64,000 nucleotides of DNA from a virus: positions 246,414 to 310,413 of IMG/VR virus record IMGVR_UViG_3300012988_000001; one strand, 5' to 3'. Made by a program: the position numbers and the translations under genes. Shown in pieces: positions 6,361-55,625 of this stretch; positions within the stretch are counted from its first letter, which is position 1, and each line of letters starts with the position of its first letter. Under the pieces are notes generated by a model, which was given only the letters and a program-made list of their open reading frames with translations, was not told the origin of the DNA and did no database searches.

Positions 6361-6390
6361 AAGGACGCACTTCGCGTCCTTTACTATTAT
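6361..6390 (+). terminator. rho-independent terminator
   Basis: aggacgc-actt-gcgtcct hairpin followed by a T-rich tract. Confidence 0.6.
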
Positions 6391-19520: not shown

Positions 19521-20077
19521 AAAACGCAATTTTAGCAGTAGTTGCACTGTTGGTAGTTATTGTACTTGGTGTAGCTGGTGTGGTTGGTATGTACAGTTCC
19601 ACACATGACACTGCGGTTGAATTCGAAAGTAATATCAAGCGTTTTTATGATGCATCCGAAAACGACTTGAGCAAATATACATTGTCGATTCAAGATAAAA
19701 CACAAATCTCTGAACTATATGTTGGTGACTTGCGTTCAGTAATCGGTGAGTACTTCAATGGTAAGCAAGGCGTTTCTGAGAAACAAGTAATGTCCTTCAT
19801 CCAACAGCACATCCCGAATTTGGATAGCAAGATTTATCAAGAACTATTAGCAACAATCGAAGCTGGACGTACTCAATTCGCGAACACCCAGAAGATGAAG
19901 ATTGATCAGTGTGCTTCTTATGACAAATTCCTAAATGGTTTCTGGAATAAGAAGATTATTGATTCAGCAGTCTTCCCATCTAAAGAGAAAGCACACTACT
20001 GTGTGGTAGTATCTGACAAGCAGACACGCACTGCAATGGAAACTGGCATTCAAGAGCCAATTAAACTAAAGCGTTAA
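19517..20077 (+). CDS. membrane-anchored protein (N-terminal TM, 186 aa)
   Basis: N-terminus ILAVVALLVVIVLGVAGVVG. No LemA LIPNLV motif. Confidence 0.45.
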   Translation: MKNAILAVVALLVVIVLGVAGVVGMYSSTHDTAVEFESNIKRFYDASENDLSKYTLSIQDKTQISELYVGDLRSVIGEYFNGKQGVSEKQVMSFIQQHIPNLDSKIYQELLATIEAGRTQFANTQKMKIDQCASYDKFLNGFWNKKIIDSAVFPSKEKAHYCVVVSDKQTRTAMETGIQEPIKLKR

Positions 20078-20796: not shown

Positions 20797-21256
20797 GAAA
20801 CTAGAAAGAATTTCCCCACTAATCGGGAAGCACAATTTTTATGAAACAGTACAAAGAACTAGATGCTATTGGAAATCAATGCAAGAATACAATTTACATG
20901 AGAACTTAGCAATTCTAGGTGAGGGTGATAAAATTGATATCATAGTACCATCGTACACTAATGACAAATTCACACAACTATCACTCACCAAAGCAGGTGA
21001 GTGTGCTTGTGTAACCTATTGTCCAACATACGGTGGTATAACCCTAAAGATCTTCGTTGATGAAAACAATAAGATAAAATCTATCTTAGCTACAGATAAC
21101 GACATGGACGGTAGACCAGTACTTGATGTGTTTTACGGGAATGGATTTGTACGTTTATTCCACATCGTGATACCACGTGAAGAACTATCAGAAACCCTAT
21201 TTCAATTTAACACAATCGATAGTTCAGATCTATCGTTCTTAGAGGATTTTGCATGA
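20777..21256 (+). CDS. FQ-motif family protein (weak member)
   Basis: C-terminus ...ELSETLFQFNTIDSSDLSFLEDFA. Confidence 0.4.
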   Translation: MMGQFIEKLERISPLIGKHNFYETVQRTRCYWKSMQEYNLHENLAILGEGDKIDIIVPSYTNDKFTQLSLTKAGECACVTYCPTYGGITLKIFVDENNKIKSILATDNDMDGRPVLDVFYGNGFVRLFHIVIPREELSETLFQFNTIDSSDLSFLEDFA

Positions 21257-21786
21257 ATTACTTACGTACACATTTGGATAAGAAAACTGTCCAGACTATT
21301 TGTGATAAAATTAGAGAAGAGATTCTTGACAAGGTTCAGACTTTCGACTATACTGTGTTTGAACATTTCAAACCAGAAGATCAAACCACAATCCAGCGTA
21401 TTAACGTGGATGTGAAGAATAATGTACTAACACTTAGTCGAATGCTTAAATTTGATTACGTAGATATTAATAATAATTACGATCCTTACCGTTATTCACC
21501 AAACCAGTACTCAATGAGACAAATCTATGTTGATTTCAAAATTCGAGTACTTCCAAAATCGGGAAAAGTAACTTCGGTTACTATCGAATTGGGAATGGAT
21601 GGTCAAAGCAGAAATGAGGGAGTGGCATTCGGTCTATATGTTGGTGATGAGAAGTTCTTGATCAATAACGATTTCTATGATCGGGAATCCTTCGAAGGTC
21701 ATGTTTTTCAACAATCAACGGTTGACAAGGCAGAGCCTTTTGGGTTAGACTATGTACTCGAAATCATTCAAAAACTAAAGGTGTGA
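21253..21786 (+). CDS. FQ-motif family protein
   Basis: C-terminus ...ESFEGHVFQQSTVDKAEPFGLDYVLEIIQKLKV. Confidence 0.5.
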   Translation: MNYLRTHLDKKTVQTICDKIREEILDKVQTFDYTVFEHFKPEDQTTIQRINVDVKNNVLTLSRMLKFDYVDINNNYDPYRYSPNQYSMRQIYVDFKIRVLPKSGKVTSVTIELGMDGQSRNEGVAFGLYVGDEKFLINNDFYDRESFEGHVFQQSTVDKAEPFGLDYVLEIIQKLKV

Positions 21787-23687: not shown

Positions 23688-23863
23688 AAGTTAGATTAGA
23701 AGAAGATTACCCAGAGTACGAATACGGCCCTCGTGGTGGTGATATCCTTGAAGTAGTTTCACAGGATGAAGAAGAAGGTGTATTCTATTGCAAATTTGGT
23801 GATGAAACAGATTTTGCCATTTATGAATACGAAGTGGAAGAGGTTATCGAAGATGACCAATAA
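23684..23863 (+). CDS. small highly acidic protein (59 aa)
   Basis: ATGA overlap with the upstream ORF. MKVRLEEDYPEYEYGPRGGDILEVVSQDEEEG... Not in the ORF track because it is under 60 aa. Confidence 0.35.
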   Translation: MKVRLEEDYPEYEYGPRGGDILEVVSQDEEEGVFYCKFGDETDFAIYEYEVEEVIEDDQ

Positions 23864-24815
23864 ACTAAATCGTTCCATTGGCTGCTTAATGGGACTAGCA
23901 GTAGGTGATGCTGTCGGAACCACATTAGAGTTTAAAGAACGTGATTATGAGAACATTACTGATATGGTAGGTGGTGGTCCGTTTGATTTAGATCCGGGAC
24001 AATGGACTGATGATACCAGTATGGCACTATGCCTAGGTTACGCACTACTTGAAGGTCACGACATCAATAGCATAACAGAAAGTATAAAGTGGTCAGAAGC
24101 CCAATTAGTGAATTATGTTGATTGGTACAGAAACGGTTACTGTAGTTCTAATGGTCACTGTTTTGATATTGGTGGTACTACCCGCAACGCATTACTAAAT
24201 TACATTCGTGATGGTGTTTTGCGTAACAATGATCATTTCCTAGATTCAGGTAATGGTAGCCTTATGCGTCTTGCTCCTATTCCAATCTATTACAATACGA
24301 ATAACGCAGAAGAGTTGTTCACTCTTGTGTATGCTGCTGATCTAAGTAGTAGTACTACACACGCTAGCGAATTATGTCGTCAATCTTGTATTGCTTTCTC
24401 AGTACTTTTGAATCGTGCTATCAATGGCAGTACTAGTGAAGGTTCTCCGAATAAAGCGAATCTCTTAGACTTCCCAGCACAAGTTTGGAGAACATTTGGC
24501 GTTTCAAGTAATTTAGTACTTGACATAATGAACGGATCGTATCAAAATAAGACTCGTGATGAAATCAGTTCGAGTGGTTATGTGATTGATAGCCTAGAAG
24601 CCGCTCTATGGGCGTTCTGGAACACTGATAACTTCCGTGACGCAATCCTATTAGCTGCTAACTTAGGTGACGATGCAGACACCGTAGCGGCGATTACAGG
24701 ACAGATTGCAGGTGCATTCTATGGCCTAGATGGTATCCCTGATGATTGGGTACAGAAGATTGCGAAGAAAGATAAGATTTTGAAATTAGCAGAGGACTTG
24801 TATAATGCAGGTTGA
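23853..24815 (+). CDS. ADP-ribosylglycohydrolase (DraG/ARH family)
   Basis: GCLMGLAVGDAVGTTLEF, TDDTSMAL, FDIGGTTRNAL, GNGSLMRLAPI, DADTVAAITGQIAGAFYG motifs. The ATG at 23853 is the start chosen here. The six-frame track starts the ORF at an upstream in-frame ATG (23766). Confidence 0.85.
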   Translation: MTNKLNRSIGCLMGLAVGDAVGTTLEFKERDYENITDMVGGGPFDLDPGQWTDDTSMALCLGYALLEGHDINSITESIKWSEAQLVNYVDWYRNGYCSSNGHCFDIGGTTRNALLNYIRDGVLRNNDHFLDSGNGSLMRLAPIPIYYNTNNAEELFTLVYAADLSSSTTHASELCRQSCIAFSVLLNRAINGSTSEGSPNKANLLDFPAQVWRTFGVSSNLVLDIMNGSYQNKTRDEISSSGYVIDSLEAALWAFWNTDNFRDAILLAANLGDDADTVAAITGQIAGAFYGLDGIPDDWVQKIAKKDKILKLAEDLYNAG

Positions 24816-26377: not shown

Positions 26378-26580
26378 TTACTAACAAAGAACCTGTATAT
26401 ACAGAAAAATCCTACTGCAATAAGTGTAAACACGCATATGAGATTCGCACTATGGAATGTCAAGTATGCGGTTATAATCTACCAGCAGTATTCAAGGTCG
26501 ATGAACGTTATTCAGACCTAACACAATTCCGGGCGTTACGCTCAATGAAACGCTATAATGAAAAAATGGGGAACGTATGA
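26365..26580 (+). CDS. small zinc-ribbon protein (CNKCKHAY...CQVCGYNL)
   Basis: 71 aa. Confidence 0.4.
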   Translation: MGKMITNKEPVYTEKSYCNKCKHAYEIRTMECQVCGYNLPAVFKVDERYSDLTQFRALRSMKRYNEKMGNV

Positions 26581-26990
26581 CTTTATCTGAAAAAATAAAA
26601 CAAATTCCTTTCTTTAAAAATCGTACCATTATCGATGCTTCTGATCGTGATAAAATTGGTCTAGTTGGCTTTAAAGAAAGTGCTGATGATGTGTATAGCT
26701 CACTGGTAGTATCTCCTGCTAGTGATAGTGGTGTAATTCCAAACATCGTCATGATTAGTACTAAAGGTTGTCTAGTACGTCTAGATGAAGGTGAGCAAAC
26801 TATCCTAATCTCTATGTGTAAAGAAGATGATAAGGATGGATTCACTGAAGTATTCCCTGCGTCCATCGATAATGGTGAATTCTTTCAAAGTACTTTAGTC
26901 AATGACTTCCGTCATATTGATTATGAATACATCGAAGCACTTCATCAGGCGGTGGCTATTCTTCATGACGAACTCCCAGAAGATAACTAA
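26577..26990 (+). CDS. FQ-motif family protein
   Basis: C-terminus ...DNGEFFQSTLVNDFRHIDYEYIEALHQAVAILHDEL. Confidence 0.5.
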   Translation: MTLSEKIKQIPFFKNRTIIDASDRDKIGLVGFKESADDVYSSLVVSPASDSGVIPNIVMISTKGCLVRLDEGEQTILISMCKEDDKDGFTEVFPASIDNGEFFQSTLVNDFRHIDYEYIEALHQAVAILHDELPEDN

Positions 26991-27533: not shown

Positions 27534-28082
27534 ATGAAACGCGAAATATATGAACTAAATCCTACAAGTTGTAAACATTGTGGGAACATAATACCATACA
27601 AGAAAGGTGTACAAGATAAAGTATTTTGTAATCTTTCATGTTCGGCTCAATACAATAATAATCAAAAATACCAAACTACCAAGATAGATAATATTTGCTT
27701 GGGATGTGGTGTATCTTTTACTACGAATAACAGACCTAGAAAATTCTGTTCGCATCTATGCTCAACTGAGTCAAAGAAGAACGAAAATATCAACCAGTGG
27801 AAATCTGGCGAACTCCAAGGATATAGCGGGAAAGCAAAACAGTTGAAACCGTGGATACGGAAGTATCTATTTGAAGTTCGAGGAACAGCTTGTTCGGAAT
27901 GTGGTTGGGATAAACGCCACCCAATGGATGGGGCAGTACTTACAGAAATCGATCATATCGATGGAAACGCCGAAAATTGTCATGAAGATAATTTGAGGAT
28001 TCTATGTCCAAACTGTCATAGTATGACAGAAACACACCGTGCTCGTAACAAGAATGGTACGAGAAATACACGATATAACTGA
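27534..28082 (+). CDS. HNH homing endonuclease
   Basis: C-terminal CSECGW...EIDHIDGNAENCHEDNLRILCPNCHSMT HNH motif plus N-terminal Cys-rich zinc fingers. Confidence 0.8.
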   Translation: MKREIYELNPTSCKHCGNIIPYKKGVQDKVFCNLSCSAQYNNNQKYQTTKIDNICLGCGVSFTTNNRPRKFCSHLCSTESKKNENINQWKSGELQGYSGKAKQLKPWIRKYLFEVRGTACSECGWDKRHPMDGAVLTEIDHIDGNAENCHEDNLRILCPNCHSMTETHRARNKNGTRNTRYN

Positions 28083-30648: not shown

Positions 30649-31326
30649 ATGGAAGAAATATTATTTGAATTATACCGTCACAAAGGTTCGTCATTGAATA
30701 AAACTGATATTGATGAATGTGACAAATTACCATCGTACAATACACTATGTCGTAAAGGCTATAGATTGACCGGACCGAAAGGTTTGAATGAGCAATTTAA
30801 ACAAAGACTTTATGCAGAAAATTCTAAAAAATGCCTTGTGTGTTCAAACGAATTAGAGTATAGTACTGACATTGAGATTAAGAAGTTTTGCTCACATTCA
30901 TGTTCTGCTACGTATTCTAATACGCGTAGAATACGAGAGAAGAAACCAGATAATCAATGTCTAAATTGTGACAAAACTGTTTCGTCAAGGAATGTTTACT
31001 GTGATAGTAATTGTTCAATTGAACACAAAAATAAAGTGTGGTTAACGGAATGGTTAAATGGCGAACGCCCCGGTTATAGTGGTAAAACATATCAACTATC
31101 ACCAACTGTTCGCAGATACTTACACGAAACACGAGGAACCGCATGTTCCGAATGTGGATGGGACAAGAAGCACCCAGTTGATGGTTCAGTACTCACAGAG
31201 GTTGATCACATTGATGGAAATGCATCTAATTGCCGTCCAGAGAATTTACGGATATTGTGTCCGAACTGTCATTCTATGACACCAACTTTCAGAGCAAGGA
31301 ATCCTGATTCAGTGCGAAGAAGATAA
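30649..31326 (+). CDS. HNH homing endonuclease (paralog of 27534..28082)
   Basis: C-terminal 80 aa nearly identical to the 27534 gene (RGTACSECGWDKKHPVDGSVLTEVDHIDGNASNC...LRILCPNCHSMT). Confidence 0.8.
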   Translation: MEEILFELYRHKGSSLNKTDIDECDKLPSYNTLCRKGYRLTGPKGLNEQFKQRLYAENSKKCLVCSNELEYSTDIEIKKFCSHSCSATYSNTRRIREKKPDNQCLNCDKTVSSRNVYCDSNCSIEHKNKVWLTEWLNGERPGYSGKTYQLSPTVRRYLHETRGTACSECGWDKKHPVDGSVLTEVDHIDGNASNCRPENLRILCPNCHSMTPTFRARNPDSVRRR

Positions 31327-31625: not shown

Positions 31626-32462
31626 ATGTTGAAGAAAATTCTACTAGCAGTTGGTATTTGTTTTGGTGCACTAGCTCTAACAGGCTGTGATCGTGTTGAA
31701 CCGGGTTTTGTTGGGATTAAAGTCAACAAACTAGGTGATGACAAAGGTGTTGGTGAAGTAGTTGGTGTAGGTCGTGTATGGACTGGTATTAACACTGATC
31801 TATATGTATTCCCTATGTTCAAACAAATGAAGTCATATGACGAAGAATTTGTATTCCAAATGCGTGATGGTACTACCATCGGTTACAAAATTGGTGTGTC
31901 ATATAAAGTAGACGCTGGTAAGGTTAAAACTGTATTCCAGACTTACCGTAAAGGCGTAGACGATATTACTGATACTGATCTACGTCAAAAGATTAGTGAC
32001 TCACTAACCCGTCTTGGTAGTAAGATGAGTACTGATCAGTTTATCGATGGTGGTAAAGCACAACTACTTGATGATGCACTAAAAGATATTCAAGGTGAAA
32101 TGGGTCCAGTTGGTATTCAGATTCTAAGTCTATCTTGGATGGGGAAACCTTCATATCCTCCATCAGTTGACGCTTCTATCAACGCAAAAGTAACTGCGAA
32201 CCAGAAGACTCTACAACGTCAGCAAGAAGTGCTACAGAAGAACGCAGAAGCTGATATGGCTCGTTCTGAAGCAAAAGGCCAAGCAGATGCTAAACTACTC
32301 CTAGCTGAAGCTGAAGCAAAAAGTATCGAAATTCTAGGTGACGCACTACGTAAAAACGCAGACGTTAAAGACCTAAAAGCAATCGAAAAATGGGATGGTA
32401 AACTACCAACTATGATGGGTACTCAAGCAGTTCCATTTGTTGATGTTCCAAACACTAAGTAA
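31626..32462 (+). CDS. SPFH/band-7 (prohibitin/HflK-like) domain lipoprotein
   Basis: Lipobox LALTGC. VEPGFVGIKVNKLG...VWTGINTDLYVFPMF, then a charged coiled-coil region typical of SPFH proteins. Confidence 0.65.
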   Translation: MLKKILLAVGICFGALALTGCDRVEPGFVGIKVNKLGDDKGVGEVVGVGRVWTGINTDLYVFPMFKQMKSYDEEFVFQMRDGTTIGYKIGVSYKVDAGKVKTVFQTYRKGVDDITDTDLRQKISDSLTRLGSKMSTDQFIDGGKAQLLDDALKDIQGEMGPVGIQILSLSWMGKPSYPPSVDASINAKVTANQKTLQRQQEVLQKNAEADMARSEAKGQADAKLLLAEAEAKSIEILGDALRKNADVKDLKAIEKWDGKLPTMMGTQAVPFVDVPNTK

Positions 32463-32518: not shown

Positions 32519-32908
32519 ATGTTTACAGTACAAGATTTTATCAATGTATTCAGTAAAGAATTAGTTATGGGTGCTAGTATGGTTACACACTGTACTCGTA
32601 ATTATGAGAATAGTAATATTCACTATACTGTGTATAATGAAAAATTAGAAATTACAATAGTTTCGTTCAATGATCCTAAGTACAGCCACTATACCCTAAT
32701 CTATGACGAATGTATGGATTGGGTTGTAATGTTAAAGCGTGGTGTGCATGGAATAAAAGATTCTCGTGTGCATTATAAACGTGTATCTCAAGGTCACAAT
32801 CAAGTAACCCCTGAACAATTACAACAAATAAAACTAATAAAAGAGAATATGGCATTTGATCATGCTCACGATATGGTTCGGAGTAACATGAAGAGTGGAA
32901 AAGTTTAA
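32519..32908 (+). CDS. hypothetical protein (129 aa)
   Basis: ORF. Confidence 0.4.
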   Translation: MFTVQDFINVFSKELVMGASMVTHCTRNYENSNIHYTVYNEKLEITIVSFNDPKYSHYTLIYDECMDWVVMLKRGVHGIKDSRVHYKRVSQGHNQVTPEQLQQIKLIKENMAFDHAHDMVRSNMKSGKV

Positions 32909-33320
32909 AATAAACACGGAACAGTTGTATAATAGCTGTACTGAACTCATTGACTGTGTATCAAATACGCGTCAGGGGTTTACAAAAATTTATGAATCGT
33001 CAAATAGGGTAATGTTTGAAAATTCCAAAAAGATGGTAGTGCAACTTACTTCAACGGAGCTAGCTCTACGATATAAAAAAATATCATTGTACTACAGGGA
33101 TAATATAGTCCAATTTTGTACTAATGGTATTTCATACATGAACGATGTAGTATATATACCTATATTCCATGATTTTTCGTTCTATCGTATCAGTACTGAA
33201 GATGAATTATTTCAACTTAGTACCGTAATTGACATTAAGCACATTACCCTTTCTGATATACAGAAATTGAATAGGTTGAGGGAATACTTCGACTATCTGC
33301 ACCTAAAAAATAACATTTAA
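32895..33320 (+). CDS. FQ-motif family protein
   Basis: ...RISTEDELFQLSTVIDIKHITLSDIQKLNRLREYF. Confidence 0.5.
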   Translation: MEKFKINTEQLYNSCTELIDCVSNTRQGFTKIYESSNRVMFENSKKMVVQLTSTELALRYKKISLYYRDNIVQFCTNGISYMNDVVYIPIFHDFSFYRISTEDELFQLSTVIDIKHITLSDIQKLNRLREYFDYLHLKNNI

Positions 33321-33330
33321 AGGGAAAATC

Positions 33331-33759
33331 ATGAAAATCAAAGAAGTAATTGAAGAATTCGCTACAGAAGATTTCTCCGAATGGGAGATGGTACGAAACC
33401 GCAATAATCAAGCTCTATGGTTGCGTCGAAACAATAGTTGCCTTAAGGTGCACGTTCGCCGTGATTCCGATGATCAATACATTGTGAAATTATATCGTTT
33501 CCAAGATCTAGGTGATTTTAGTGGTATGAACTACCGAATTACTATTATTCCTGAAGGTATCGAGTTGTGTACATTGGAGATGAACAAAGACCAACCAGAT
33601 GAGGTAATCACAATCAATGATTATCGTTCCCTAGAATCTGAAGATAGTTTCTTCCAGCAGTCTCTAGTACAGGATATGGGAGATCTAGAATGTTCTCATA
33701 TTGAAACACTAATTTATTTGAACCACTTGGTAATTGAACGTACTAAAGGACACATCTAA
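33331..33759 (+). CDS. FQ-motif family protein
   Basis: ...LESEDSFFQQSLVQDMGDLECSHIETLIYL. Confidence 0.5.
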   Translation: MKIKEVIEEFATEDFSEWEMVRNRNNQALWLRRNNSCLKVHVRRDSDDQYIVKLYRFQDLGDFSGMNYRITIIPEGIELCTLEMNKDQPDEVITINDYRSLESEDSFFQQSLVQDMGDLECSHIETLIYLNHLVIERTKGHI

Positions 33760-34331
33760 TGAAAACCAATTCGATTCATGATGTGATCAAGATGAAGCCC
33801 TGCTTCGCTAGTACCATCATGCGTAATATCACTTTCAAGAAGATGAAACGTACTTCACGTATGAAGTCCAAGCATTATTACCGTGGACGGCAACATGATT
33901 CGTTACGTGTCATCTACGATTATGCTGAAAAGACGATCCAATTCATCCGGGAATTGAACTGTTCCTATGGTTTACGTCATGAGTCCTTGACATACCATTA
34001 CAGTAAGGGTATAGTAGTCAAAGAATTTCATGAGCGTAGTTCTTATGAACCTAAATGGCGTAAAGTTGAATATCCCTTCATCATTGACGAAGCAGAACAT
34101 TTTACACAGAGTTTAATACTAGATCAGTACTTCCCAGAGTTGGAAGATTTTGTTAAAATGAAAGAAATGCTTGCTGAGTTCAAACAGGACTCGTATGATT
34201 GGGATAATGAGATGTACGCCAATAAATGCAAACGCCGTAAGGAGAGTGCTTTAAAATGGAAACAAAAAACAGGTCGCAGTTTGACACAACATTGGGGTCG
34301 GAAATCAAAGGCAAAGCCTTCATCCTCTTAA
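33759..34331 (+). CDS. FQ-motif family protein (motif internal, basic C-terminal extension overlapping next gene)
   Basis: ...DEAEHFTQSLILDQYFPELEDFVKMKEMLAEF. Confidence 0.45.
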   Translation: MKTNSIHDVIKMKPCFASTIMRNITFKKMKRTSRMKSKHYYRGRQHDSLRVIYDYAEKTIQFIRELNCSYGLRHESLTYHYSKGIVVKEFHERSSYEPKWRKVEYPFIIDEAEHFTQSLILDQYFPELEDFVKMKEMLAEFKQDSYDWDNEMYANKCKRRKESALKWKQKTGRSLTQHWGRKSKAKPSSS

Positions 34332-34666
34332 GGAAAGACCTTGAGATGCCTGAAGGTAAGCTAGCAGTACAGGTTGGTCATGCCATTGACCAAGTTTGGG
34401 CTTACGCACATTCTGGTAACTGTAGCAGTACTGAAGAATCTGATTTTCAAGAGTGGGTTAATCACGGTCGTCGTAAAATCCTCTTGCGTCTGAAGGACGA
34501 AAGTGATATGATTAAGGTCAAGTCAAAATTGGAAGCCGAAGGGGTTTCAGTCTTTGATGTTTACGACTTCGGGATCAACTTCTTCGACGGCTTAACATAT
34601 ACGGGTCTGGTGGTATTCCCAACAGACAATGAAATCAAAGCATTAAAACGTGTGAGGGTTTACTAA
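34256..34666 (+). CDS. PTH2-type peptidyl-tRNA hydrolase
   Basis: KAFILLRKDLEMPEGKLAVQVGHA matches the PTH2 motif [24 protein letters not shown]. C-terminal DVYDFGINFFDGLTYTGLVVFP matches [21 protein letters not shown]. Confidence 0.65.
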   Translation: METKNRSQFDTTLGSEIKGKAFILLRKDLEMPEGKLAVQVGHAIDQVWAYAHSGNCSSTEESDFQEWVNHGRRKILLRLKDESDMIKVKSKLEAEGVSVFDVYDFGINFFDGLTYTGLVVFPTDNEIKALKRVRVY

Positions 34667-35061
34667 TGTTATTACAACGTCATAACGGTTTGTTCTTAGG
34701 TATTCTTCTGGGTGTTTGGCTTGCTGGTAACTTTGTACATTGGGTTATCGATGTTGAAGCACCAAACCAAGAACTTGTAGAGAAAGCTCGCCGTGAAAAT
34801 GAAGCTGCACAACCACCTAAGCCACCTGAGCCTAAACGCAACGATACTGGCTTGTATGCTGAAGTACTAGACATGTTACCTTCATGCCGTGGTAATGAAG
34901 AGAAGAGTACTGGCGACAAGTTCTATCTATGCCCTAATGGGTCTAAAATTACACAAATTAACTGGAGCCGTTTAGGTGGCGACCGTAAAGGGGTGGTAAC
35001 TCGTTACTTTAACCCAGAAGGGCAATTAATCCTAATCTACGGTCATCCTGACGACGAATAA
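34666..35061 (+). CDS. membrane-anchored protein (N-terminal TM, 131 aa)
   Basis: LFLGILLGVWLAGNFVHWVI TM segment. Confidence 0.45.
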   Translation: MLLQRHNGLFLGILLGVWLAGNFVHWVIDVEAPNQELVEKARRENEAAQPPKPPEPKRNDTGLYAEVLDMLPSCRGNEEKSTGDKFYLCPNGSKITQINWSRLGGDRKGVVTRYFNPEGQLILIYGHPDDE

Positions 35062-35070
35062 GGATTAACG

Positions 35071-35379
35071 ATGTTCACAGCAATACCACATAAAGATAAA
35101 GAACAACCAATGTCTAAATTTGGTTTGGAAATTGTAACTGATCATGCACAAGTGATGGTAAAAACATCATCTGGACACAAAGTACTAGACCTCTATGTGC
35201 GTAATAGTAATGGTCAGCTTTATGCAAAGAATGGTCAGTACTTCATTTGTCTAATGCGTTCTGGTGTAACCAGTAATTCCAAGATTACATGGGTTGAACT
35301 AGATGGAATAGATGAAGTATATGACAAATGTTACCTAACGTACTTTCAACCGATGGATGGCATGAATGAAAAAAATTAA
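35071..35379 (+). CDS. hypothetical protein
   Basis: ORF. Confidence 0.4.
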   Translation: MFTAIPHKDKEQPMSKFGLEIVTDHAQVMVKTSSGHKVLDLYVRNSNGQLYAKNGQYFICLMRSGVTSNSKITWVELDGIDEVYDKCYLTYFQPMDGMNEKN

Positions 35380-35554
35380 TAGCACCACTGAATATGAAAT
35401 CAATGTGGCAGATCTCGAACAGTTAATTCGTGAAAAACACTTGACTGATTTACCAGAAAACGCTAAGATCTCTATCACCCCGCAATACCAGAGCTACTAT
35501 GATGAGCAGGTATGGCGTGGAATGAAAATTACGGTAGAGATCAAGGGAGAATAA
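35366..35554 (+). CDS. hypothetical protein
   Basis: ORF. Confidence 0.35.
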   Translation: MKKINSTTEYEINVADLEQLIREKHLTDLPENAKISITPQYQSYYDEQVWRGMKITVEIKGE

Positions 35555-35555
35555 A

Positions 35556-35813
35556 GTGGCTAATGTTGTTAAAGCACGTAAAATGATTAGTGGTGACGAT
35601 CTTCGTTATTTGAATAACTATCGCCACCTCTTTCAGAAACTATGTGCTGGTGTACACATGACTGTGATTACTGACACTGTTCAGGAACCAGAAGATGTGT
35701 TTGGAAATTATGCTAAAGTTTTCAAGCTGTATATGAAAAAAGGGCTATTGGATCTTAAAACCATCACTGAAGTTGATGATGACGAAGAGATGGAAAACTT
35801 TTTATTCTTGTAA
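35556..35813 (+). CDS. hypothetical protein
   Basis: ORF. Confidence 0.4.
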   Translation: MANVVKARKMISGDDLRYLNNYRHLFQKLCAGVHMTVITDTVQEPEDVFGNYAKVFKLYMKKGLLDLKTITEVDDDEEMENFLFL

Positions 35814-35880
35814 GGGGGATTTATGTCTGAACCACTAGATCGTGATGATGATTTCCTAGATGAGCGTTATGGTGATAGCG

Positions 35881-36375
35881 ATGACTAAACTCAAATTAGT
35901 TACGTTAGCCGAACTCGTGAAACTCATGAATGAGTTCTTCGACACTAACCCGGAGTTTCACAAGACTCCATCATGTGAAGTCAACCTGAAGGTGTCAAAC
36001 CCTGATTTTGACCGTGATAATGGTGGTTATGATGACCTGATCACTATTTTTGCATGTGAGCGTTATATTCGTTTCAAATTGCGTGATAGTAAGAACTTAA
36101 TCGAGTATGATCTATCTTGTCTACCGTGGCGTGGCGGGTTTAACCTCAATATCTGGTACGATGGTAAAACAAGCCACATTGACCGTAGTTCTCATCAAGC
36201 GATTAAAGCTCAGTACTTAAGTACTGAAGAAGAATATTTCCAAGCGAGTACGGTTTTAGATTATCGTGGTGTAACGTTGGAAACGATCAAAGAGATTGCC
36301 AAATTACAAGATCGCATGTATAATTACTTCGGTCTTGTACCTGTGCCTTATGAAACGGATGGAGGTTTTGTATGA
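35881..36375 (+). CDS. FQ-motif family protein
   Basis: ...YLSTEEEYFQASTVLDYRGVTLETIKEIAKLQD. Preceded by a 22-codon ORF (35823-35888) with a strong AGGGGGA RBS. Confidence 0.5.
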   Translation: MTKLKLVTLAELVKLMNEFFDTNPEFHKTPSCEVNLKVSNPDFDRDNGGYDDLITIFACERYIRFKLRDSKNLIEYDLSCLPWRGGFNLNIWYDGKTSHIDRSSHQAIKAQYLSTEEEYFQASTVLDYRGVTLETIKEIAKLQDRMYNYFGLVPVPYETDGGFV

Positions 36376-36746
36376 AACAAGAAACATTAGACAAAATTCT
36401 GGAAGCGATCAAAGCTACTCCACCAGATGAACTGTACAAACAATTGTTTGGTTTCTATGAGAAGGATTACATTGCTTATCTTGATGACAAGCAGTATGAA
36501 TTCGAAGCACAGTACATCATTGATGCCATGACCAAATCTGACATTACAGAAGTGAACGTGTACGAGGGTGAGATTCAGCCTCCTTCTAAGATGTTCTTCC
36601 ATTACTTGCATAACAATGCCACACAAGGCACTGATGGCGAGTTCTGGGATGGTTGGGGAGCCTCTACGCTTGATGTACCAAACTTCCCATTGCGTTATTT
36701 GTGGGTGAACGGTCAAGGCACTGAACACTTCTTCCAGTTGGTGTAG
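36372..36746 (+). CDS. hypothetical protein
   Basis: ORF. Confidence 0.45.
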   Translation: MKQETLDKILEAIKATPPDELYKQLFGFYEKDYIAYLDDKQYEFEAQYIIDAMTKSDITEVNVYEGEIQPPSKMFFHYLHNNATQGTDGEFWDGWGASTLDVPNFPLRYLWVNGQGTEHFFQLV

Positions 36747-36748
36747 AT

Positions 36749-37183
36749 ATGACTAACCCAATTTTTCGTAAGGTGTATGATGGTAATTTAACGGCAGAGG
36801 ATTTGAAAATGCTTAACAGTACTGAAAAGTTTGTAGAATTCCATGACGCTCATTATCATACTTATGTTTCTTATAACATTAATAAGATAACGGGCGGTAA
36901 GAGTCTTTATCAGATTAAAAAGGATCATATTGATCAGCAGCACAAAATTGAACGTGAATGGTATCAAGCATATCCACAGATTGGAGAACGGGTTGTTTTC
37001 CGTAGTGTAGATGCACAAGATAATATTCATGATGGGTTTGGGATTGTTGAGAAGGTTCACGCTCACGATTTCCGTACTGGGTATGCTTTGTATACCGTGA
37101 AATTAGAGGAAGGTGATGATACATATCAATTGTATTGTAACCGTCCGGGACAAGAAGATAAGGAATGGATTAGGCGTGCTTAA
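36749..37183 (+). CDS. hypothetical protein
   Basis: ORF. Confidence 0.45.
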   Translation: MTNPIFRKVYDGNLTAEDLKMLNSTEKFVEFHDAHYHTYVSYNINKITGGKSLYQIKKDHIDQQHKIEREWYQAYPQIGERVVFRSVDAQDNIHDGFGIVEKVHAHDFRTGYALYTVKLEEGDDTYQLYCNRPGQEDKEWIRRA

Positions 37184-37388
37184 ACCAAATGTATTTTACG
37201 CAGGGCATAATACCCTAACCAATGAAGTATTCACTGAATCTATGTATCGCCATCGTATTGATACATATGATTATATGGTAATGTCCTTTGGTGAAGATTG
37301 GGAAGAATCCCGTCCATATCTTACAATTAAACTATGTGAGGTAGTGTTCGTTGGAACAGAAAATCAAAGTGAAGGGAACGGTAACTGA
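37174..37388 (+). CDS. hypothetical protein (GTG start with AAGGA RBS)
   Basis: Start is uncertain. Confidence 0.3.
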
Positions 37389-37689
37389 AGTTAAGGTTGT
37401 CGAAGTTGAATTGTATCCTGATGAATTAGTTAAAAAGGCTATGCCACATTTAACAGTCGATGATACAATTCAAGCTATCAAGAATCATATGGAACGTAGG
37501 TTTCGTGAAAACGATCCTGACCTTCCCAGTGGTGCAGAAATCAACTGGTATAGAAAGGTATGGGAGAAATACTCCTTTACTGATTACCACAAAAATGCTG
37601 ACGTGTATGAGGATATTCGTAAATTCAATTCTGAAGAGTTACAATACATTCTAGCAATTGAATCTATCTATCATGTACTAAACAACTAA
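37351..37689 (+). CDS. hypothetical protein (start uncertain, possibly ATG 37441)
   Basis: ORF. Confidence 0.35.
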   Translation: MEQKIKVKGTVTEVKVVEVELYPDELVKKAMPHLTVDDTIQAIKNHMERRFRENDPDLPSGAEINWYRKVWEKYSFTDYHKNADVYEDIRKFNSEELQYILAIESIYHVLNN

Positions 37690-37710
37690 TGCCGCTCTGC
37701 GGCATTTTTC
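37689..37710 (+). terminator. rho-independent terminator (atgccgc-tct-gcggcat plus ttttc)
   Basis: The hairpin contains the ATG used by the ORF track as the start of the next gene. Confidence 0.5.
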
Positions 37711-37721
37711 GTAGGAAAATT

Positions 37722-38192
37722 ATGAAAACTAAACCACTTACGCAGATGAAAAAATTCTACGCAGTAAAAGATGAAGTAGTGGATAGAATGATTGAGATTC
37801 GTAGCCGCCCTCTTTCACCGGAAACAAGATATACATACATTAGACCACACAAATCAAGTTTAATCTATTTTGGATGCCCCGGACTTATTGAAGAAATGTC
37901 ATTTTGCATTGAAATGGAATATAACGGTGTTCTAATGATATTCTTCTATGATCCTATTTCAGACGATAGGGTTGAGTATACTTTTGCATTCAATTGGTCT
38001 GAAGACGAAATTGAAGATGGGACTGACGAATTCTTTATTGATGTGGACATTGATGATGCGGGTCTATTCCAAGAGAGTACCATAAACGATATTCAATTCT
38101 TAACAGTAGAACTACACCAAGCATTGGTTAAGTACTGTCTAGATGTGCGAGAAGCACTAAGGATTAAACTTGAACATGATGAAAGCGTTTGA
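37722..38192 (+). CDS. FQ-motif family protein
   Basis: ...DDAGLFQESTINDIQFLTVELHQALVKY. Start placed after the terminator with a GGAAAA RBS. Confidence 0.5.
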   Translation: MKTKPLTQMKKFYAVKDEVVDRMIEIRSRPLSPETRYTYIRPHKSSLIYFGCPGLIEEMSFCIEMEYNGVLMIFFYDPISDDRVEYTFAFNWSEDEIEDGTDEFFIDVDIDDAGLFQESTINDIQFLTVELHQALVKYCLDVREALRIKLEHDESV

Positions 38193-38556
38193 AGAGATTA
38201 GAATTCTCTTGAAACAAGATGTGTATGACAAAGTAACCCCAGACCGCCACGCTGAATTTATTGCTGATTATCCGATAACAGATCACATTGATGCTATGTG
38301 TACAAAAGATGTTGTTGAGTACTCATGGCATGAGAGGAATGGTTCATATGCATACTTGAATGTAATGATATTTCGTGATGGTAGAATTTGGGTGCTATAT
38401 AATCCAGAAGGGAAGATTGGTGCTGGTATTCACCTGAAGTTTAAAATTCACAGTACTGAAGAAGATTTATTCATGCTCAGTACTGTACAAGATGATTTGG
38501 GACTTGGCTTAGAACAGCTTAAAGTCTGTAACTGGATATGGGAGATGTATTTTTGA
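38170..38556 (+). CDS. FQ-motif family protein
   Basis: ...IHSTEEDLFMLSTVQDDLGLGLEQLKV. Confidence 0.5.
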   Translation: MNMMKAFEEIRILLKQDVYDKVTPDRHAEFIADYPITDHIDAMCTKDVVEYSWHERNGSYAYLNVMIFRDGRIWVLYNPEGKIGAGIHLKFKIHSTEEDLFMLSTVQDDLGLGLEQLKVCNWIWEMYF

Positions 38557-39161
38557 ATTTATTATCTGATAAGATTGCAATGACTTATGGTAGTTTAAAT
38601 GATGAACCACGTTTTGATGCAGGATGGAATAGATACACTACAGTAAATGATTTTGCTTTCATTGACGACGACCAAGTTTTGTGTATTAATATCGCACCTA
38701 ATCTTTACATTAATTATAAAGATATTGTGTTCATTGATCCCGAAACTGGGGAAGATCTTGAAGTACTACCATATATGGATATGTCTGAAGAGGAATTCTT
38801 TCAGTACACAACTGTATATGATTTTGGTGCATGTGACTTTGATGATATTACATTCACCAAGAAACATATTTGTGCACTACAGGGCTTAACTGGTAATTTT
38901 CAGAAAAAAGTTAACGAACACATGAATAGATGGCAATCTGAATTACAAGCCACTCTATCACGAGAAATTAGTCATGAAATTGACAAAGAACTAATGCAAA
39001 ATCTATCCAATCTAAGTTGGAGTGCTAAAGAAGTTGCACTACCAATTCCACCAACACCAACCAAGATAGCTTCCATGCCACTGCTAGCAGATGCATTGAA
39101 GATTCAAATGATTGGTGATAGTTGTGTATCATTTAAAGCTATGAATCAGGGGAATCCATGA
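38538..39161 (+). CDS. FQ-motif family protein (motif internal)
   Basis: ...DMSEEEFFQYTTVYDFGACDFDDITF. Confidence 0.45.
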   Translation: MGDVFLNLLSDKIAMTYGSLNDEPRFDAGWNRYTTVNDFAFIDDDQVLCINIAPNLYINYKDIVFIDPETGEDLEVLPYMDMSEEEFFQYTTVYDFGACDFDDITFTKKHICALQGLTGNFQKKVNEHMNRWQSELQATLSREISHEIDKELMQNLSNLSWSAKEVALPIPPTPTKIASMPLLADALKIQMIGDSCVSFKAMNQGNP

Positions 39162-39592
39162 GTAACAAATATGATTTGAAAATGCTTAAACGTGGTATGA
39201 TGGAGTTTAAAAACATCATTGGTGCGTACCAGTACTTAATGGATGTTGGGGCTATCTCTGAAGTTGATTTGTACAACGAATACTGCACTAAAGATGATGC
39301 AGGTAATCCACAAGATTTCTCCGCTACTATCGGTTCTGAACACATTGAGATAACCTTTATGGATAGTATGCTATCCGTAATGCATAATCGCCTTGTGTAT
39401 GAAATTGCTAACGATGATGGGTACTTGTTAGTACTGGATATTAAAAACCCAAATGAAATAAACAACGATGAATCTTTCTTCCAAGCAAGTACGTTATATG
39501 ACCTAACAGATATAGAAGGTTATGAGTGGTTTACCACAATTATGGATTGTTTTGCTTCGGTAATGGATTTCATGGAGAGTGATGATGTATAG
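39158..39592 (+). CDS. FQ-motif family protein
   Basis: ...INNDESFFQASTLYDLTDIEGYEWFTTIMDCF. Confidence 0.5.
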   Translation: MSNKYDLKMLKRGMMEFKNIIGAYQYLMDVGAISEVDLYNEYCTKDDAGNPQDFSATIGSEHIEITFMDSMLSVMHNRLVYEIANDDGYLLVLDIKNPNEINNDESFFQASTLYDLTDIEGYEWFTTIMDCFASVMDFMESDDV

Positions 39593-39977
39593 AATTGAAA
39601 TTGAATATAGTACTGGTAACACCTTCGGTACTCATATTGAAACAACTGTTATTGATGATGTAGTATTCGCAGATCTAGAGAGTGCTAAACAAGCTCTAAA
39701 GATTATTGCTAAACACAAAGAAATGTGTGAAGCAGCAAACGTCGTTTGGCGTACAACTGACGCTGAACGTAAAGCAAAACTAGCTGAAATTGCTGCACAA
39801 CCGTGGGCGGTAAAATCCGAATTCAGCAGTGATTATGAGTACCAAGTAAAAGTCCCTACCTCTAAGGATTGTCAAGAGTGGGAGAACATTTACTGCTTCT
39901 GGATGGGGTACTTTGAAACCCTACACGAAGCCCGTATCGTGTCCGACGAAGATGATGGAATGTCGATCTCTTTCTGA
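39579..39977 (+). CDS. hypothetical protein
   Basis: ORF. Confidence 0.45.
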   Translation: MMMYRIEIEYSTGNTFGTHIETTVIDDVVFADLESAKQALKIIAKHKEMCEAANVVWRTTDAERKAKLAEIAAQPWAVKSEFSSDYEYQVKVPTSKDCQEWENIYCFWMGYFETLHEARIVSDEDDGMSISF

Positions 39978-40006
39978 TTGACAGGTACAATTTGATTTAG
40001 TATAAT
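39978..40006 (+). promoter_or_regulatory. class A promoter (TTGACA-17-TATAAT)
   Basis: Read directly. Confidence 0.65.
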
Positions 40007-40033
40007 GGCCTCCTTAATTGGGGGCTTTTTCAT

Positions 40034-40486
40034 TTGGAGGAAATCATGGGAAACACAGTCCTGACTTTGTTGCGTAAAATTAAACATCCTGTTATCCAAC
40101 GTCGCGTCCATTCGGAGAACGAGAGTCGTTATTATAATCATTGGACAAGTAGTGCTGGTGGTTTTGCAGTACTCCGCACAAACACGCACTATGAAATTGC
40201 TCTTGAGTTTAAACACAACCAAGAGAACTATCGTATTAAGTTATACCGTGATTCATTTTCTATGGTGCGTAAGCGTGTTGCAAAATTCTACGCCCACACT
40301 GGTTATCACATGCAGAAACCAGAAATAGTTGCAGAACTCGAAAACATAGCGTATAATGATTTTGAAGCAACAATATTCCAACACTCACTACTTGGTGAAC
40401 TGGGAATGTTCGGAACACAAGAGGCAGAAATGCTATTACAACTACGTAACATCTATTTTGGAGAATGCGATGAATCCACGTCCTAA
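40034..40486 (+). CDS. FQ-motif family-like protein
   Basis: ...DFEATIFQHSLLGELGMFGTQEAEMLLQLRNIYF. Confidence 0.45.
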   Translation: MEEIMGNTVLTLLRKIKHPVIQRRVHSENESRYYNHWTSSAGGFAVLRTNTHYEIALEFKHNQENYRIKLYRDSFSMVRKRVAKFYAHTGYHMQKPEIVAELENIAYNDFEATIFQHSLLGELGMFGTQEAEMLLQLRNIYFGECDESTS

Positions 40487-44910: not shown

Positions 44911-44941
44911 AATGCCAGTACTTAAGTACTGGCATTTTTTA
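44911..44941 (+). terminator. rho-independent terminator after the tRNA pair. Its hairpin also overlaps the 3' end of the minus-strand HNH gene
   Basis: aatgccagtac-ttaa-gtactggcatt plus ttttt. Confidence 0.65.
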
Positions 44942-45764
44942 TAGAATCATAGGAATCTACCATAGAAACCAATTCATCATATGTAATACTTGATTGTGTA
45001 CCTTTTGATTGATTCTCAGAATGTAACATGAGTTCACAATTTAACGGGTGCTTTATATAATAGGGATCATAATTGAATTTTATAGCATCTCTAATTGAAA
45101 CTTTGTGATCTCGTGAAACACCATTTATATTAATATCATTTCCCTTAGTTTTTCTCCACCCATGCTTGTTGAGAAATTCAATATCAAACAAATCGGGGTA
45201 ATGATAAACATTAAAAGTGAATATAAATTTAGCTCTCCCATTTTCGGTGTAACAGTGTTTACAATTATTACAGTATCCAGTTTGCTTTCTGTATGAACCA
45301 ACAAAAGAACAATTCTTACATTTACATATAAAGATCTTTTCAAACTCACCAACTTCATCTTTTATTTTTTTAGGATTAGTAGTAGATTTATTATATAATC
45401 TTTTCGTGGGTGATTTCTTTTTATTTCTTGGTATTTTTGAAACAGATATCGAAATTTTTTGTTTAGTTTCCTCGGTCATTTCCCTGTTGAAATTACTACA
45501 ACTTTTACTACAATATTTTTGTGTTGGGAAGTTATAGGTAAAATCTTCCCCACAGTACTCACACTTTTTAAGTTTATTAATTTTTAATTTTTTACCTTGA
45601 CATTTATTAGAACAAAAAGCAGTAGTGCTTCCATTTTTAATACACCTGCGAATTTCTTTCACTTCTCGTGAAATTTCGACTTGACAGCCATCACATTCTA
45701 GTGTTATTCTAGAACGACTTTTTAATGACGAAATATCGTTTAATGTTATATTTGTTAATTTCAT
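44922..45764 (-). CDS. HNH-type homing endonuclease (Cys-rich Zn fingers), the only convincing minus-strand gene
   Basis: 280 aa with multiple CxxC pairs. C-terminus ...GVSRDHKVSIRDAIKFNYDP...NCELMLHSENQSKG (His-Me finger-like). RBS on the minus strand. Confidence 0.6.
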   Translation of the reverse strand: MKLTNITLNDISSLKSRSRITLECDGCQVEISREVKEIRRCIKNGSTTAFCSNKCQGKKLKINKLKKCEYCGEDFTYNFPTQKYCSKSCSNFNREMTEETKQKISISVSKIPRNKKKSPTKRLYNKSTTNPKKIKDEVGEFEKIFICKCKNCSFVGSYRKQTGYCNNCKHCYTENGRAKFIFTFNVYHYPDLFDIEFLNKHGWRKTKGNDININGVSRDHKVSIRDAIKFNYDPYYIKHPLNCELMLHSENQSKGTQSSITYDELVSMVDSYDSIKNAST

Positions 45765-46239: not shown

Positions 46240-46875
46240 ATGAACCGTCATAGCTTTACATCCTTTAACATCAAACGTATCGTTGGTGAAGTGTCCCAAA
46301 TCCTCGGCTGTCAAGAAGAATTTATTACTTCATCTTTTGACTTCCGTAAGAGTACTGACACTCGTGTTGTAACGCCTGAAGGTACAGTGTGTACTCGTGT
46401 TCGCTACTTCGAGCACTATCAGCAAGACCATGCTACTATTACTCAGCAGCGTACAGAACTTCCTATGTCTGAAGTACTGAAAGAGTGGATGCAAAATGTC
46501 AAGAAGTATCCACCATCCGAAATCTTCTTCCAGCAAACGGGACCGAAGTCAGAGAAAGCTGAGAAACGCTGTAAACTCATCTGTGAGGACTTATATCTCT
46601 TCTCCTTCCCAGAGGGTCAAGAGAATCTTCTAAACGAGCTAGGAGCCGCGTATCGCGAATTTGAGGTACTTACAACTCTGGGCTATGATGACTTGAAAGA
46701 TGGGCGTCTTTTAGAAGTGTCTACTAAACTTCAGTACTACATGCGTGAAGTATGTAATGCTTTGGAAGCAATGCACAAGAAAGACCAACTTCTAAACGAT
46801 TATTACAAGTCTTGGAAAGTTAAGTATCAAGACTTGAGCCGTGAAGTATCTAAACTAACAATGGAGTTTATCTAA
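46240..46875 (+). CDS. hypothetical protein
   Basis: ORF. Confidence 0.45.
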   Translation: MNRHSFTSFNIKRIVGEVSQILGCQEEFITSSFDFRKSTDTRVVTPEGTVCTRVRYFEHYQQDHATITQQRTELPMSEVLKEWMQNVKKYPPSEIFFQQTGPKSEKAEKRCKLICEDLYLFSFPEGQENLLNELGAAYREFEVLTTLGYDDLKDGRLLEVSTKLQYYMREVCNALEAMHKKDQLLNDYYKSWKVKYQDLSREVSKLTMEFI

Positions 46876-52781: not shown

Positions 52782-53159
52782 ATGACATTTGATGATTTTG
52801 AAGTATACGTAAGACGTGAAATTGAGAATTATCTAAACCGCCCTGAGAGTAAAAGTATTTCACAGTGTTTTCACTTTGACAGTACTCAATACTTAGTGCT
52901 AAAATGGCGTAATACACCAAATACAGCAGATGTACGTTTCTCAATCAATTATGATTATGAAGATATGTATATTGAATTCACACTCATTGTTGAGTATGAT
53001 ACTGGTGAAGACGAAGATGATCATCACAGTCAAGGTACTGTACATGATATACCAACATCTGAAGAAGAATACTTTCAAAAGAGTACAGTACAAGATTTAG
53101 GTTTCCGTTGGGAATTCTACCAGTACTTGTATGACTTCTTTGAAAAGCAAAGAACCTAA
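52782..53159 (+). CDS. FQ-motif family protein
   Basis: ...IPTSEEEYFQKSTVQDLGFRWEFYQYLYDFF. Confidence 0.5.
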   Translation: MTFDDFEVYVRREIENYLNRPESKSISQCFHFDSTQYLVLKWRNTPNTADVRFSINYDYEDMYIEFTLIVEYDTGEDEDDHHSQGTVHDIPTSEEEYFQKSTVQDLGFRWEFYQYLYDFFEKQRT

Positions 53160-55533: not shown

Positions 55534-55620
55534 ATTTACTGTTAGCTCAGATGGTAGAGCGGTTGTACTGGTGAGACTCCAGACAAAAGGGACACTGGTT
55601 CGATGCCAGTACAGTAAACC
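55534..55620 (+). tRNA. atypical tRNA-like gene. It has acceptor, D-arm, T-arm and CCA, but an 8 to 10 nt expanded anticodon or variable region and no clean anticodon loop
   Basis: Acceptor TTACTGT/ACAGTAA, D-arm tagctcagatggtagagc, T-arm actggttcgatgccagt, CCA. The middle folds as gtactgg-tgagact-ccagac. Confidence 0.3.
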
Positions 55621-55625
55621 ACAAT

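Follow-up and report, generated by a model that had tools for sequence, protein, structure and literature searches.

Sixteen genes in a 64,000-nucleotide stretch of viral DNA (IMG/VR record IMGVR_UViG_3300012988_000001, positions 246,414 to 310,413; hereafter the window, with positions counted from its first letter) encode small proteins that share one C-terminal module, in which a run of Ser/Thr and acidic residues leads into an aromatic residue, Phe-Gln and S-[TL]-[VI]-x-D. Sequence comparison confirmed that these genes, all on the + strand, form a real family. To judge from the databases searched, the family is confined to jumbo phages of the RaK2-like type, where it is unannotated and has not been described as such. 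We regard it as probable, if only just, that the genes belong to an old, clade-specific multigene family of early host-interaction or anti-defence binders that are built on one fold and are not protease substrates.

Replication genes of T4 type and 14 tRNAs are encoded in the window. For the topoisomerase II large subunit, identity is 90.7% with Klebsiella phage fENko-Kae01 and about 90.6% with Salmonella phages Munch, 7t3, SE_PL and PHA46, as against 81% for the PBECO4/121Q group. No DNA near-identical to the window was found in the phage collection, and the protein encoded at 62807–63316 is identical to a database protein (P0001) from a 366 kb metagenome contig. On these grounds, the window is part of an undescribed RaK2-like jumbo myophage with a T4 core.

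A first-pass annotation of the window, made from the letters alone, had counted at least 18 open reading frames (ORFs) with this module. In 16 window ORFs, Phe-Gln and S-[TL]-[VIL]-x-D lie about 26–45 residues before the C-terminus (more in tailed proteins), and these are taken here as the members (Table 1). The pattern FQx[ST][TL] occurs 14 times in the 403 ORFs of the six reading frames, always on the + strand, compared with a mean of 1.5 in residue shuffles. In a leave-one-out test with a 44-column hidden Markov model (HMM) of the module, 13 of the 16 members were the next-best match after the training set (E from 9e-12 to 0.006), the marginal ones (E 0.09–0.5) being 40034/40046, 57556 and 33759. 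An HMM of world-wide representatives, some of them near-identical to window proteins, ranked all 16 members above every other window ORF. Even its weakest members, 21253 (E 0.005) and 57069 (E 0.015), stood above the best of 4030 shuffled ORFs (E 0.07). The common C-terminal module is therefore upheld by the HMM, leave-one-out and shuffle tests, while three of the genes first counted are not. The ORF at 20777 has only a motif-like C-terminus and failed both HMM tests. Those at 56301 and 56690, first listed as degenerate variants, lack the FQ module, match no family profile and have no Pfam hit; they (56301–56693 and 56690–57088, both +) are a separate tandem pair, paralogous to each other (E 6e-11). 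In database gene calls, three members start at 40046, 38176 and 57565 instead of at the TTG codons at 40034, 38170 and 57556, and the start at 40034 is probably wrong.

Motif-like strings also occur in two non-members on the + strand, 36372–36746 (GTEHFFQLV, at the very C-terminus) and 46240–46875 (PSEIFFQQTG, internal). Neither was matched by any family profile, and the strings may be due to chance or mark decayed relatives.

Over the 13-codon core, the mean nucleotide identity among the 16 copies is only 53%, and the conserved Ser is encoded by both codon families (AGY in 10 copies, TCN in four). For this reason, what maintains the motif is selection at the protein level, and neither a DNA repeat nor recent gene conversion. 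All module matches fall on the coding strand.

The core columns of the module are [TS] 83%, E 92%, E 83%, E 57%, [FYL], F 100%, Q 94%, x, S 94%, T/L 99%, V/I/L 92%, x and D 89%. The conserved columns after the core show hydrophobic periodicity, and the amphipathic helix that had been proposed there is also seen in an AlphaFold2 model. The proteins are largely acidic (median isoelectric point 4.8, below 5.5 in 84% of members; among the window proteins the net charge is as low as -26), about 6% of members being basic and several neutral.

The model was calculated for the 35881 protein from an input of nine sequences (the protein and eight relatives). It has a predicted local distance difference test score (pLDDT) of 88.9 and a predicted template modelling score (pTM) of 0.84, and contains a helix at residues 9–21, six consecutive strands between 34 and 111, and helices at 116–123 and 133–150. 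The motif, EEEYFQAS in this protein, is exactly the helix 116–123, and the two 10-residue blocks that cover this helix have pLDDT values of 93 and 82. In the model the conserved Thr/Ser before the helix falls at the N-cap and a Glu at N3, as in a capping box, while a second conserved box, [TD]-x-E-[DE], falls at the start of the last helix. As modelled, then, the motif is a folded structural element and not an exposed linear motif or a site of the tobacco etch virus (TEV) protease type, because it forms a helix inside a compact alpha-beta6-alpha-alpha domain and conforms to helix-capping rules. This structural reading rests on the secondary structure of the model and on those established rules. 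Secondary structure and periodicity together suggest that the Phe is buried and that the E, Q, S and D residues are exposed. The hydrophobic positions that are conserved (F, V/I/L and the i, i+3/4 series) would suit a hairpin that packs against a sheet. The inter-helix loop was also inspected for an EF-hand, and its D/N/G spacing does not fit. A model of the 40046 subfamily is of low confidence (pLDDT 53) and has the same order of elements.

When the 35881 model was compared with the BFVD database using Foldseek, full-length matches were obtained to uncharacterised proteins of phages GAP32, CBB and RaK2, the better of them with probability 0.97–1.0, template modelling (TM) scores up to 0.63 and 10–20% identity. 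Proteins of Yersinia and Erwinia jumbo phages matched more weakly (E 1e-3 and 0.12). Against known folds, Foldseek gave nothing below E 0.05, with scores in the noise.

The strong divergence of the N-terminal parts, already remarked upon in the first-pass annotation, was borne out. Pairwise phmmer found no similarity between the N-terminal parts of paralogues, and in hhalign comparisons of 15 orthologue groups and of 18 larger clusters no N-terminal pair exceeded 46% probability, so that none of 153 profile–profile pairs reached 50%. A faint W-x-R-N...V-R-D core that had been read in several members has no statistical support. When 186 N-terminal parts were clustered they fell into 74 clusters, strictly by positional orthology, which implies that the paralogues arose before these phage groups diverged and that each has been retained. 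It appears likely from the narrow range of lengths, the shared order of modelled elements and the full-length Foldseek matches that the proteins descend from one ancestral domain, very far diverged, and do not share a portable module.

The syntenic 50 kb of Munch contains 17–20 members, and there are ten in L004 and several each in GAP32, CBB and fENko-Kae01. The members evolve faster than the neighbouring genes: their median identity to the Munch orthologues is 35% (n = 14), compared with 60% for neighbours (n = 61; Mann–Whitney p = 3e-6), and to L004 it is 73%, compared with 81%. Family content differs between close relatives: in fENko-Kae01 (L009, 270482–280928), which is the nearest relative described, the five members that correspond to the block 37722–40486 are missing, and the interval from the ENKO_402 homologue to tRNA-Met is taken up by small ORFs unrelated to them. 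Among the orthologues of 35881, alternate positions of strands 3–5 (R64, K66, R68, E75 and W92) are invariant, which in the model would fit a surface specific to this subfamily.

The proposal that an HMM of the module be searched against the databases was followed. Against 1.84 billion representative proteins, hmmsearch returned 118 hits at E <= 0.001; one, a 1133-residue repeat protein, was spurious. The other 117 represent further 50%-identity clusters of 81–217 residues with the module near the C-terminus. The 142 database family proteins (these clusters together with close relatives from the other protein searches) have a median length of 142 residues (interquartile range, IQR, 131–156), and their invariant Phe has a median position of 105 (IQR 97–114), with 37 residues after it. 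Contigs of 341–362 kb are among the sources of the metagenome proteins, whose only name is 'hypothetical protein'. The module is conserved in related phages: with tblastn, the consensus matched 61 of 50,697 phage records, of which 60 are RaK2-like (94–386 kb, nearly all genomes of 310–386 kb) and one is phiKp_21 (86 kb). The matching phages infect Escherichia, Klebsiella, Salmonella, Yersinia, Erwinia and Pectobacterium, and one is a Xanthomonas phage.

With a single genome taken per species (185,579 species of bacteria and archaea; 596 Gb), no cellular relative was confirmed; the strict pattern gave 18 unconfirmed stretches there, compared with five in the 64 kb window. Scans with subfamily and module alignments of IMG/VR, JGI metagenomes and GTDB genomes gave only 1, 3, 0, 0 and 1 confirmed loci, and word-indexed protein searches returned close relatives only (25 and 8 hits). 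The family had not been recognised at first reading, and indeed no member scored above the cut-off in Pfam-A, NCBIfam or PADLOC, and PDB sequences gave no match at E up to 10. The long members, scanned with Pfam for fused domains, gave sub-threshold hits only. PHROGs v4 does include orthologues of individual paralogues, but splits the superfamily into unrelated-looking families of unknown function (phrog_30111, 24941, 23322, 34619, 23860, 17453 and others), and the unifying module is not captured; cross-hits between these families sit on the C-terminal ~35 residues, and three of the 10 members scanned had no PHROG match. The 35881 protein matches phrog_30111 over its full length (E 3.9e-32; residues 3–158 on profile positions 4–153 of 154).

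In the literature, neither a description of the family nor expression data for its members were found. The RaK2 paper reports that about 10% of the gene products of that phage are paralogues (PMC3622015) and describes neither the motif nor a grouping of these genes; the CBB paper, in which 22 ORFs are given as paralogous (PMC5259590), does not describe this motif or unite the genes.

The arrangement of the genes bears on their timing. Between 14416 and 60862, the coding strand has 25 sigma-70 promoters that agree with the consensus at 11 or 12 of its 12 positions, compared with one on the opposite strand. A perfect match (TTGACA-N16-18-TATAAT) is seen in ten of them (14416, 14948, 16172, 18368, 19041, 39978, 41356, 41787, 42088 and others), and the T4-type late box TATAAATA occurs in the window only at 6388. 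In CBB, RpoD-like promoters were found to be concentrated in CBB_390-546, which its authors suspected of being an early host-takeover region (PMC5259590). CBB_391 and CBB_398 are family members within this region, and CBB_387 lies just upstream. At the far end of the window, the 74-residue product of 63309–63533 (+) matches the Pfam Acb2/Tad1 hairpin (E 4e-19; 69 bits, compared with a cut-off of 27). Its gene overlaps the stop codon of member 62807, and the gene order in Munch is the same. Proteins with the Acb2/Tad1 hairpin domain are phage sponges for the signals of Thoeris and of the cyclic-oligonucleotide-based antiphage signalling system (CBASS).

In a study of fENko-Kae01, 220 phage proteins were detected by liquid chromatography–tandem mass spectrometry (LC-MS/MS) of the >300 kDa particle fraction (PMC11218385). 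ENKO_390, 391, 392 and 398 are not among these 220, it being understood that the fraction is crude and the proteins small; the neighbours ENKO_386 and ENKO_388 were detected in it. The first-pass annotation had considered the genes to be an effector set for host takeover, anti-defence or virion targeting. The promoters, the fast evolution and the Acb2/Tad1-like neighbour fit the first two of these roles, while virion association received no support from the particle fraction and virion targeting is unlikely.

Taken together, these data suggest the following picture. The 16 genes would encode small (~140 residues), mostly acidic, single-domain proteins, each with an N-terminal helix, a six-stranded antiparallel beta-meander, a short helix and a long amphipathic helix. 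The conserved [ST]-E-E-E-[FY]-F-Q-x-S-[TL]-[VI]-x-D...[TD]-x-E-[DE] would be the C-terminal helical hairpin of this domain: the short helix would take its N-cap and first turn from the Ser/Thr and acidic run, the hairpin would be clamped to one face of the sheet by core anchors at the invariant Phe and the V/I/L positions, and the second box would cap the last helix. The open polar face of the sheet may then be a binding surface specific to each paralogue, a proposal made because sheet and loops have diverged beyond recognition while each paralogue has been kept as a positional orthologue. Transcribed early by the host sigma-70 RNA polymerase, the proteins might work as cytoplasmic binders, each taking up a different host protein or nucleic acid stoichiometrically, in the service of host takeover, anti-defence or both. 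For early timing, for binding and for the targets, we infer from context.

It should be noted that several points weigh against this picture. Homology (Pfam, NCBIfam, PADLOC, PDB sequences) gives no function for any member, the early timing rests on promoter consensus, and a confident model was obtained for one member only. The association with a single Acb2-like gene is weak evidence, as is the absence of small proteins from a shotgun proteome. Finally, the near-invariance of Q, S and D exceeds what helix capping usually needs, and the hairpin itself may be a functional site.

This last point leads to a possible, if on balance unlikely, alternative, in which the conserved hairpin is such a site: it would dock or assemble the varied N-terminal heads on one partner, or make homo- or hetero-oligomers of the paralogues. 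A machine of the host, a protein of the phage, a metal or a nucleic acid could be the partner, and such a role of the hairpin would be compatible with the explanation preferred here. The best-conserved columns are indeed polar (both of the leading E columns, Q, S and D) where other similarity has been lost, selection on the protein has kept the motif over more than 117 clusters, and an oligomer would fit a weak topological likeness to the trimeric acidic protein p32/MAM33. A docking role of the conserved polar residues is possible. However, each of these residues is at a predicted helix N-cap, first turn or inter-helix turn, and for this reason a purely structural reading suffices. Should the hairpin turn out to be a common docking module, one would expect the phages of this clade to have a cellular target in common. 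In a bolder and rather doubtful version, the hairpin is a universal plug that joins more than a dozen fast-evolving heads to one shared host or phage machine, or forms mixed oligomers of paralogues, and each paralogue neutralises a different host factor or immune system; this, if true, would define a previously unknown modular takeover/anti-defence superfamily specific to RaK2-like jumbo phages.

It is improbable that the proteins are acidic mimics of DNA or other nucleic acids, or p32/MAM33-like platforms, that tie up basic proteins of the host (for example restriction enzymes and the proteins of nucleoid or ribosome). The low isoelectric points and the net charges mentioned above would suit this role, but the basic and neutral members would not, Pfam MAM33 (PF02330) has no hit, and in an hhalign comparison with a p32 sequence the probability was 0.1%.

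A further proposal of the first-pass annotation was a fixed short linear motif, possibly a 3C/TEV-like cleavage site. That [ED]x[FY]FQ|x is cut by such an enzyme or by a phage protease, or that it targets the proteins to the virion for injection, we consider very improbable. The likeness to ENLYFQ|S is real as far as it goes (Glu at P6 in 92%, Phe at P2 in 100%, Gln at P1 in 94%), but Tyr occupies P3 in no more than 33%, no core column varies as much as P1' (Q/L/Y/E in most), and EEEYFQAS is helical within the compact domain of a high-confidence model. Neither the scanned ORFs of the window nor the annotation of the syntenic 50 kb of Munch showed a protease domain, and a cognate chymotrypsin-fold cysteine protease was likewise not seen in them. 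T4-type prohead proteases cleave after (L/I)-x-E, from which FQ differs. As to the virion, jumbo phages do package non-structural proteins (PMC11218385), but the four orthologues are missing from that particle-fraction proteome. Moreover, the conserved element is C-terminal, in contrast to the N-terminal capsid-targeting sequence of the T4 internal-protein type, and the genes lie behind sigma-70 and not T4-type late promoters. Finally, although the module is short and acidic-rich and the N-terminal parts share nothing, the idea that the similarity is compositional, a chance effect or a repeated DNA element is refuted by the leave-one-out and shuffle controls, the fixed distance of the module from the C-terminus in the 142 proteins, the restriction of matches to the coding strand, the low core nucleotide identity with both Ser codon families, and the rarity of the strict pattern in cellular genomes.

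Table 1. Family members and other named features of the window (positions in the window; HMM, world-wide HMM; LOO, leave-one-out; P numbers, database proteins)
Position	Strand	Feature	Length (aa)	Core	Remarks
21253–21786	+	Member, weak module	177	GHVFQQSTVDK	LOO E 0.0011; HMM E 0.005; Munch orthologue likewise has the module
26577–26990	+	Member	137	GEFFQSTLVND	LOO E 6e-7; phrog_23322; orthologues in Munch, L004
32895–33320	+	Member, GTG start	141	STEDELFQLSTVID	LOO E 9e-12; orthologues in Munch, L004, fENko-Kae01 (ENKO_390)
33331–33759	+	Member	142	SEDSFFQQSLVQD	LOO E 1.6e-7; phrog_24941
33759–34331	+	Member, variant core and basic tail	190	EAEHFTQSLILD	LOO E 0.09; HMM E 2.9e-8; orthologues in three phages
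35881–36375	+	Member, modelled protein	164 (171 from ATG 35860)	STEEEYFQASTVLD	AlphaFold2 pLDDT 88.9; orthologues in Munch, 7t3, fENko-Kae01, CBB (CBB_398), GAP32, EJP2
37722–38192	+	Member	156	DAGLFQESTIND	LOO E 7e-5; near-identical to P0005, differing only near the C-terminus
38176–38556	+	Member, FM replaces FQ; alternative start TTG 38170	126	STEEDLFMLSTVQD	LOO E 4e-4; P0030 (126 aa)
38538–39161	+	Member, ~90 aa C-terminal extension	207	SEEEFFQYTTVYD	LOO E 1.3e-5; P0027
39158–39592	+	Member	144	NDESFFQASTLYD	LOO E 2.7e-4; L004 orthologue 87.5% identical
39978–40006	+	Perfect sigma-70 consensus promoter			TTGACA-17-TATAAT, directly upstream of 40046
40046–40486	+	Member	146	FEATIFQHSLLGE	HMM E 1.8e-8; P0003 and seven relatives
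52782–53159	+	Member, between tRNA-Ser and tRNA-Tyr	125	TSEEEYFQKSTVQD	LOO E 3e-8; P0004
57069–57584	+	Member, weak module	171	STEEERFQLSCTD	LOO E 0.0057; HMM E 0.015; Munch orthologue has the module
57565–57984	+	Member; alternative start TTG 57556	139	TSQEDEFQASTARV	HMM E 8e-5; P0045 (139 aa)
62322–62810	+	Member	162	DSEAEYFQTSLVED	LOO E 1.6e-6
62807–63316	+	Member; stop overlaps start of Acb2/Tad1-like gene	169	DTEEEYFQASTVDD	LOO E 1.5e-8
16253–17395	+	Toxic-anion-resistance (TelA-like) protein
19517–20077	+	Unnamed ORF
23766–24815	+	ADP-ribosylglycohydrolase
27534–28082	+	HNH-type homing-endonuclease-like gene
30649–31326	+	HNH-type homing-endonuclease-like gene
31626–32462	+	ORF labelled peptidyl-tRNA hydrolase in Munch
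34256–34666	+	PTH2 peptidyl-tRNA hydrolase
44922–45764	-	HNH-type homing-endonuclease-like gene
54435–55004	+	HNH-type homing-endonuclease-like gene
60765–61115	+	DUF1353
61384–61932	+	HNH-type homing-endonuclease-like gene

The family genes had been described as tandem, translationally coupled arrays, several of them beside tRNA genes. Tight, overlapping arrays are indeed present, but tRNA genes adjoin some members only (26577 and 52782). The other neighbours are nearly all without annotation; the few recognisable genes among them owe their names to the Munch and CBB annotations or to Pfam, and all of these are on the + strand. In the particle fraction of fENko-Kae01, the orthologue of 31626–32462 is abundant. 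Dispersed among the tRNA genes are five genes of HNH type that resemble homing endonucleases and have Cys-rich N-terminal parts; two of them (27534 and 30649) have a long, nearly identical C-terminal half in common, and another (44922–45764) lies on the minus strand, where no other gene of any size occurs.

At 55536–55621 (+), ARAGORN predicts a tRNA with a four-base anticodon (ctgg), which scores 40 bits with the Rfam tRNA model. In the Rfam alignment 16 nt take the place of the 7-nt anticodon loop, so that an insertion, an intron or decay of the copy may be involved. Another stretch resembling a tRNA, at 55628–55696 (+), scores 26.7 bits, under the gathering score. The C-terminal extension of the 38538 protein (residues ~125–207; also in P0027 and P0075), which only this subfamily has, was matched below threshold by the Pfam model of the major capsid protein Gp23, at 17.6–17.9 bits compared with a cut-off of 24.4 (model positions 171–218), in two members of the subfamily from different 50%-identity clusters. 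This signal could be due to helical bias or to a capsid-like segment.

Development against E. coli, Klebsiella and Salmonella is under way for the RaK2-like jumbo phages (Asteriusvirus, Alcyoneusvirus, Mimasvirus, Eneladusvirus and the Munch group), of whose genes more than 80% are unannotated. The family unites 16 gene products of the window that current resources treat as unrelated hypothetical proteins. With its sequence signature, one confident fold, early-promoter context and anti-defence neighbour, it is a tractable candidate set for anti-defence and host-takeover screens, and it offers a natural experiment in the surface diversification of one scaffold.

Comparison with known systems places the family among familiar things: in a giant virus, small and putatively early proteins have multiplied within one lineage. 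The MGF110, MGF360 and MGF505 families of African swine fever virus (ASFV), the Bcl-2-like and ankyrin families of poxviruses and the US22 family of herpesviruses appear, by analogy, to be built alike: lineage-specific tandem expansions of small, fast-evolving proteins on one scaffold, in early or accessory regions. Unlike in these features, they have no relation in sequence or fold to the phage family. Among protease sites, ENLYFQ|S/G of TEV/3C type shares with the module E at P6, an aromatic residue at P3 in many members, F at P2 and Q at P1. However, such sites have the consensus E-x-x-Y-x-Q with a small P1' (S/G/A) and lie in exposed segments that are extended or flexible, whereas the family motif is in a predicted helix of a folded domain, with a variable P1'.

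The p32/gC1qBP/MAM33 proteins have an N-terminal helix, a seven-stranded antiparallel sheet and two C-terminal helices, and form a doughnut-shaped homotrimer. A relation to them found no support in sequence tests (Pfam, PDB sequences and hhalign), and the likeness in topology is a lead only. Also comparable are the small, acidic early proteins of T-even phages and T7 that serve anti-defence or host takeover (Ocr, Arn, Acb2/Vs.4 and Tad1), which likewise stand behind host-type promoters; in sequence and fold they are not similar to the family. Of these systems one is represented in the window itself, where a bona fide Acb2/Tad1-hairpin homologue is translationally coupled to the family pair 62322/62807.

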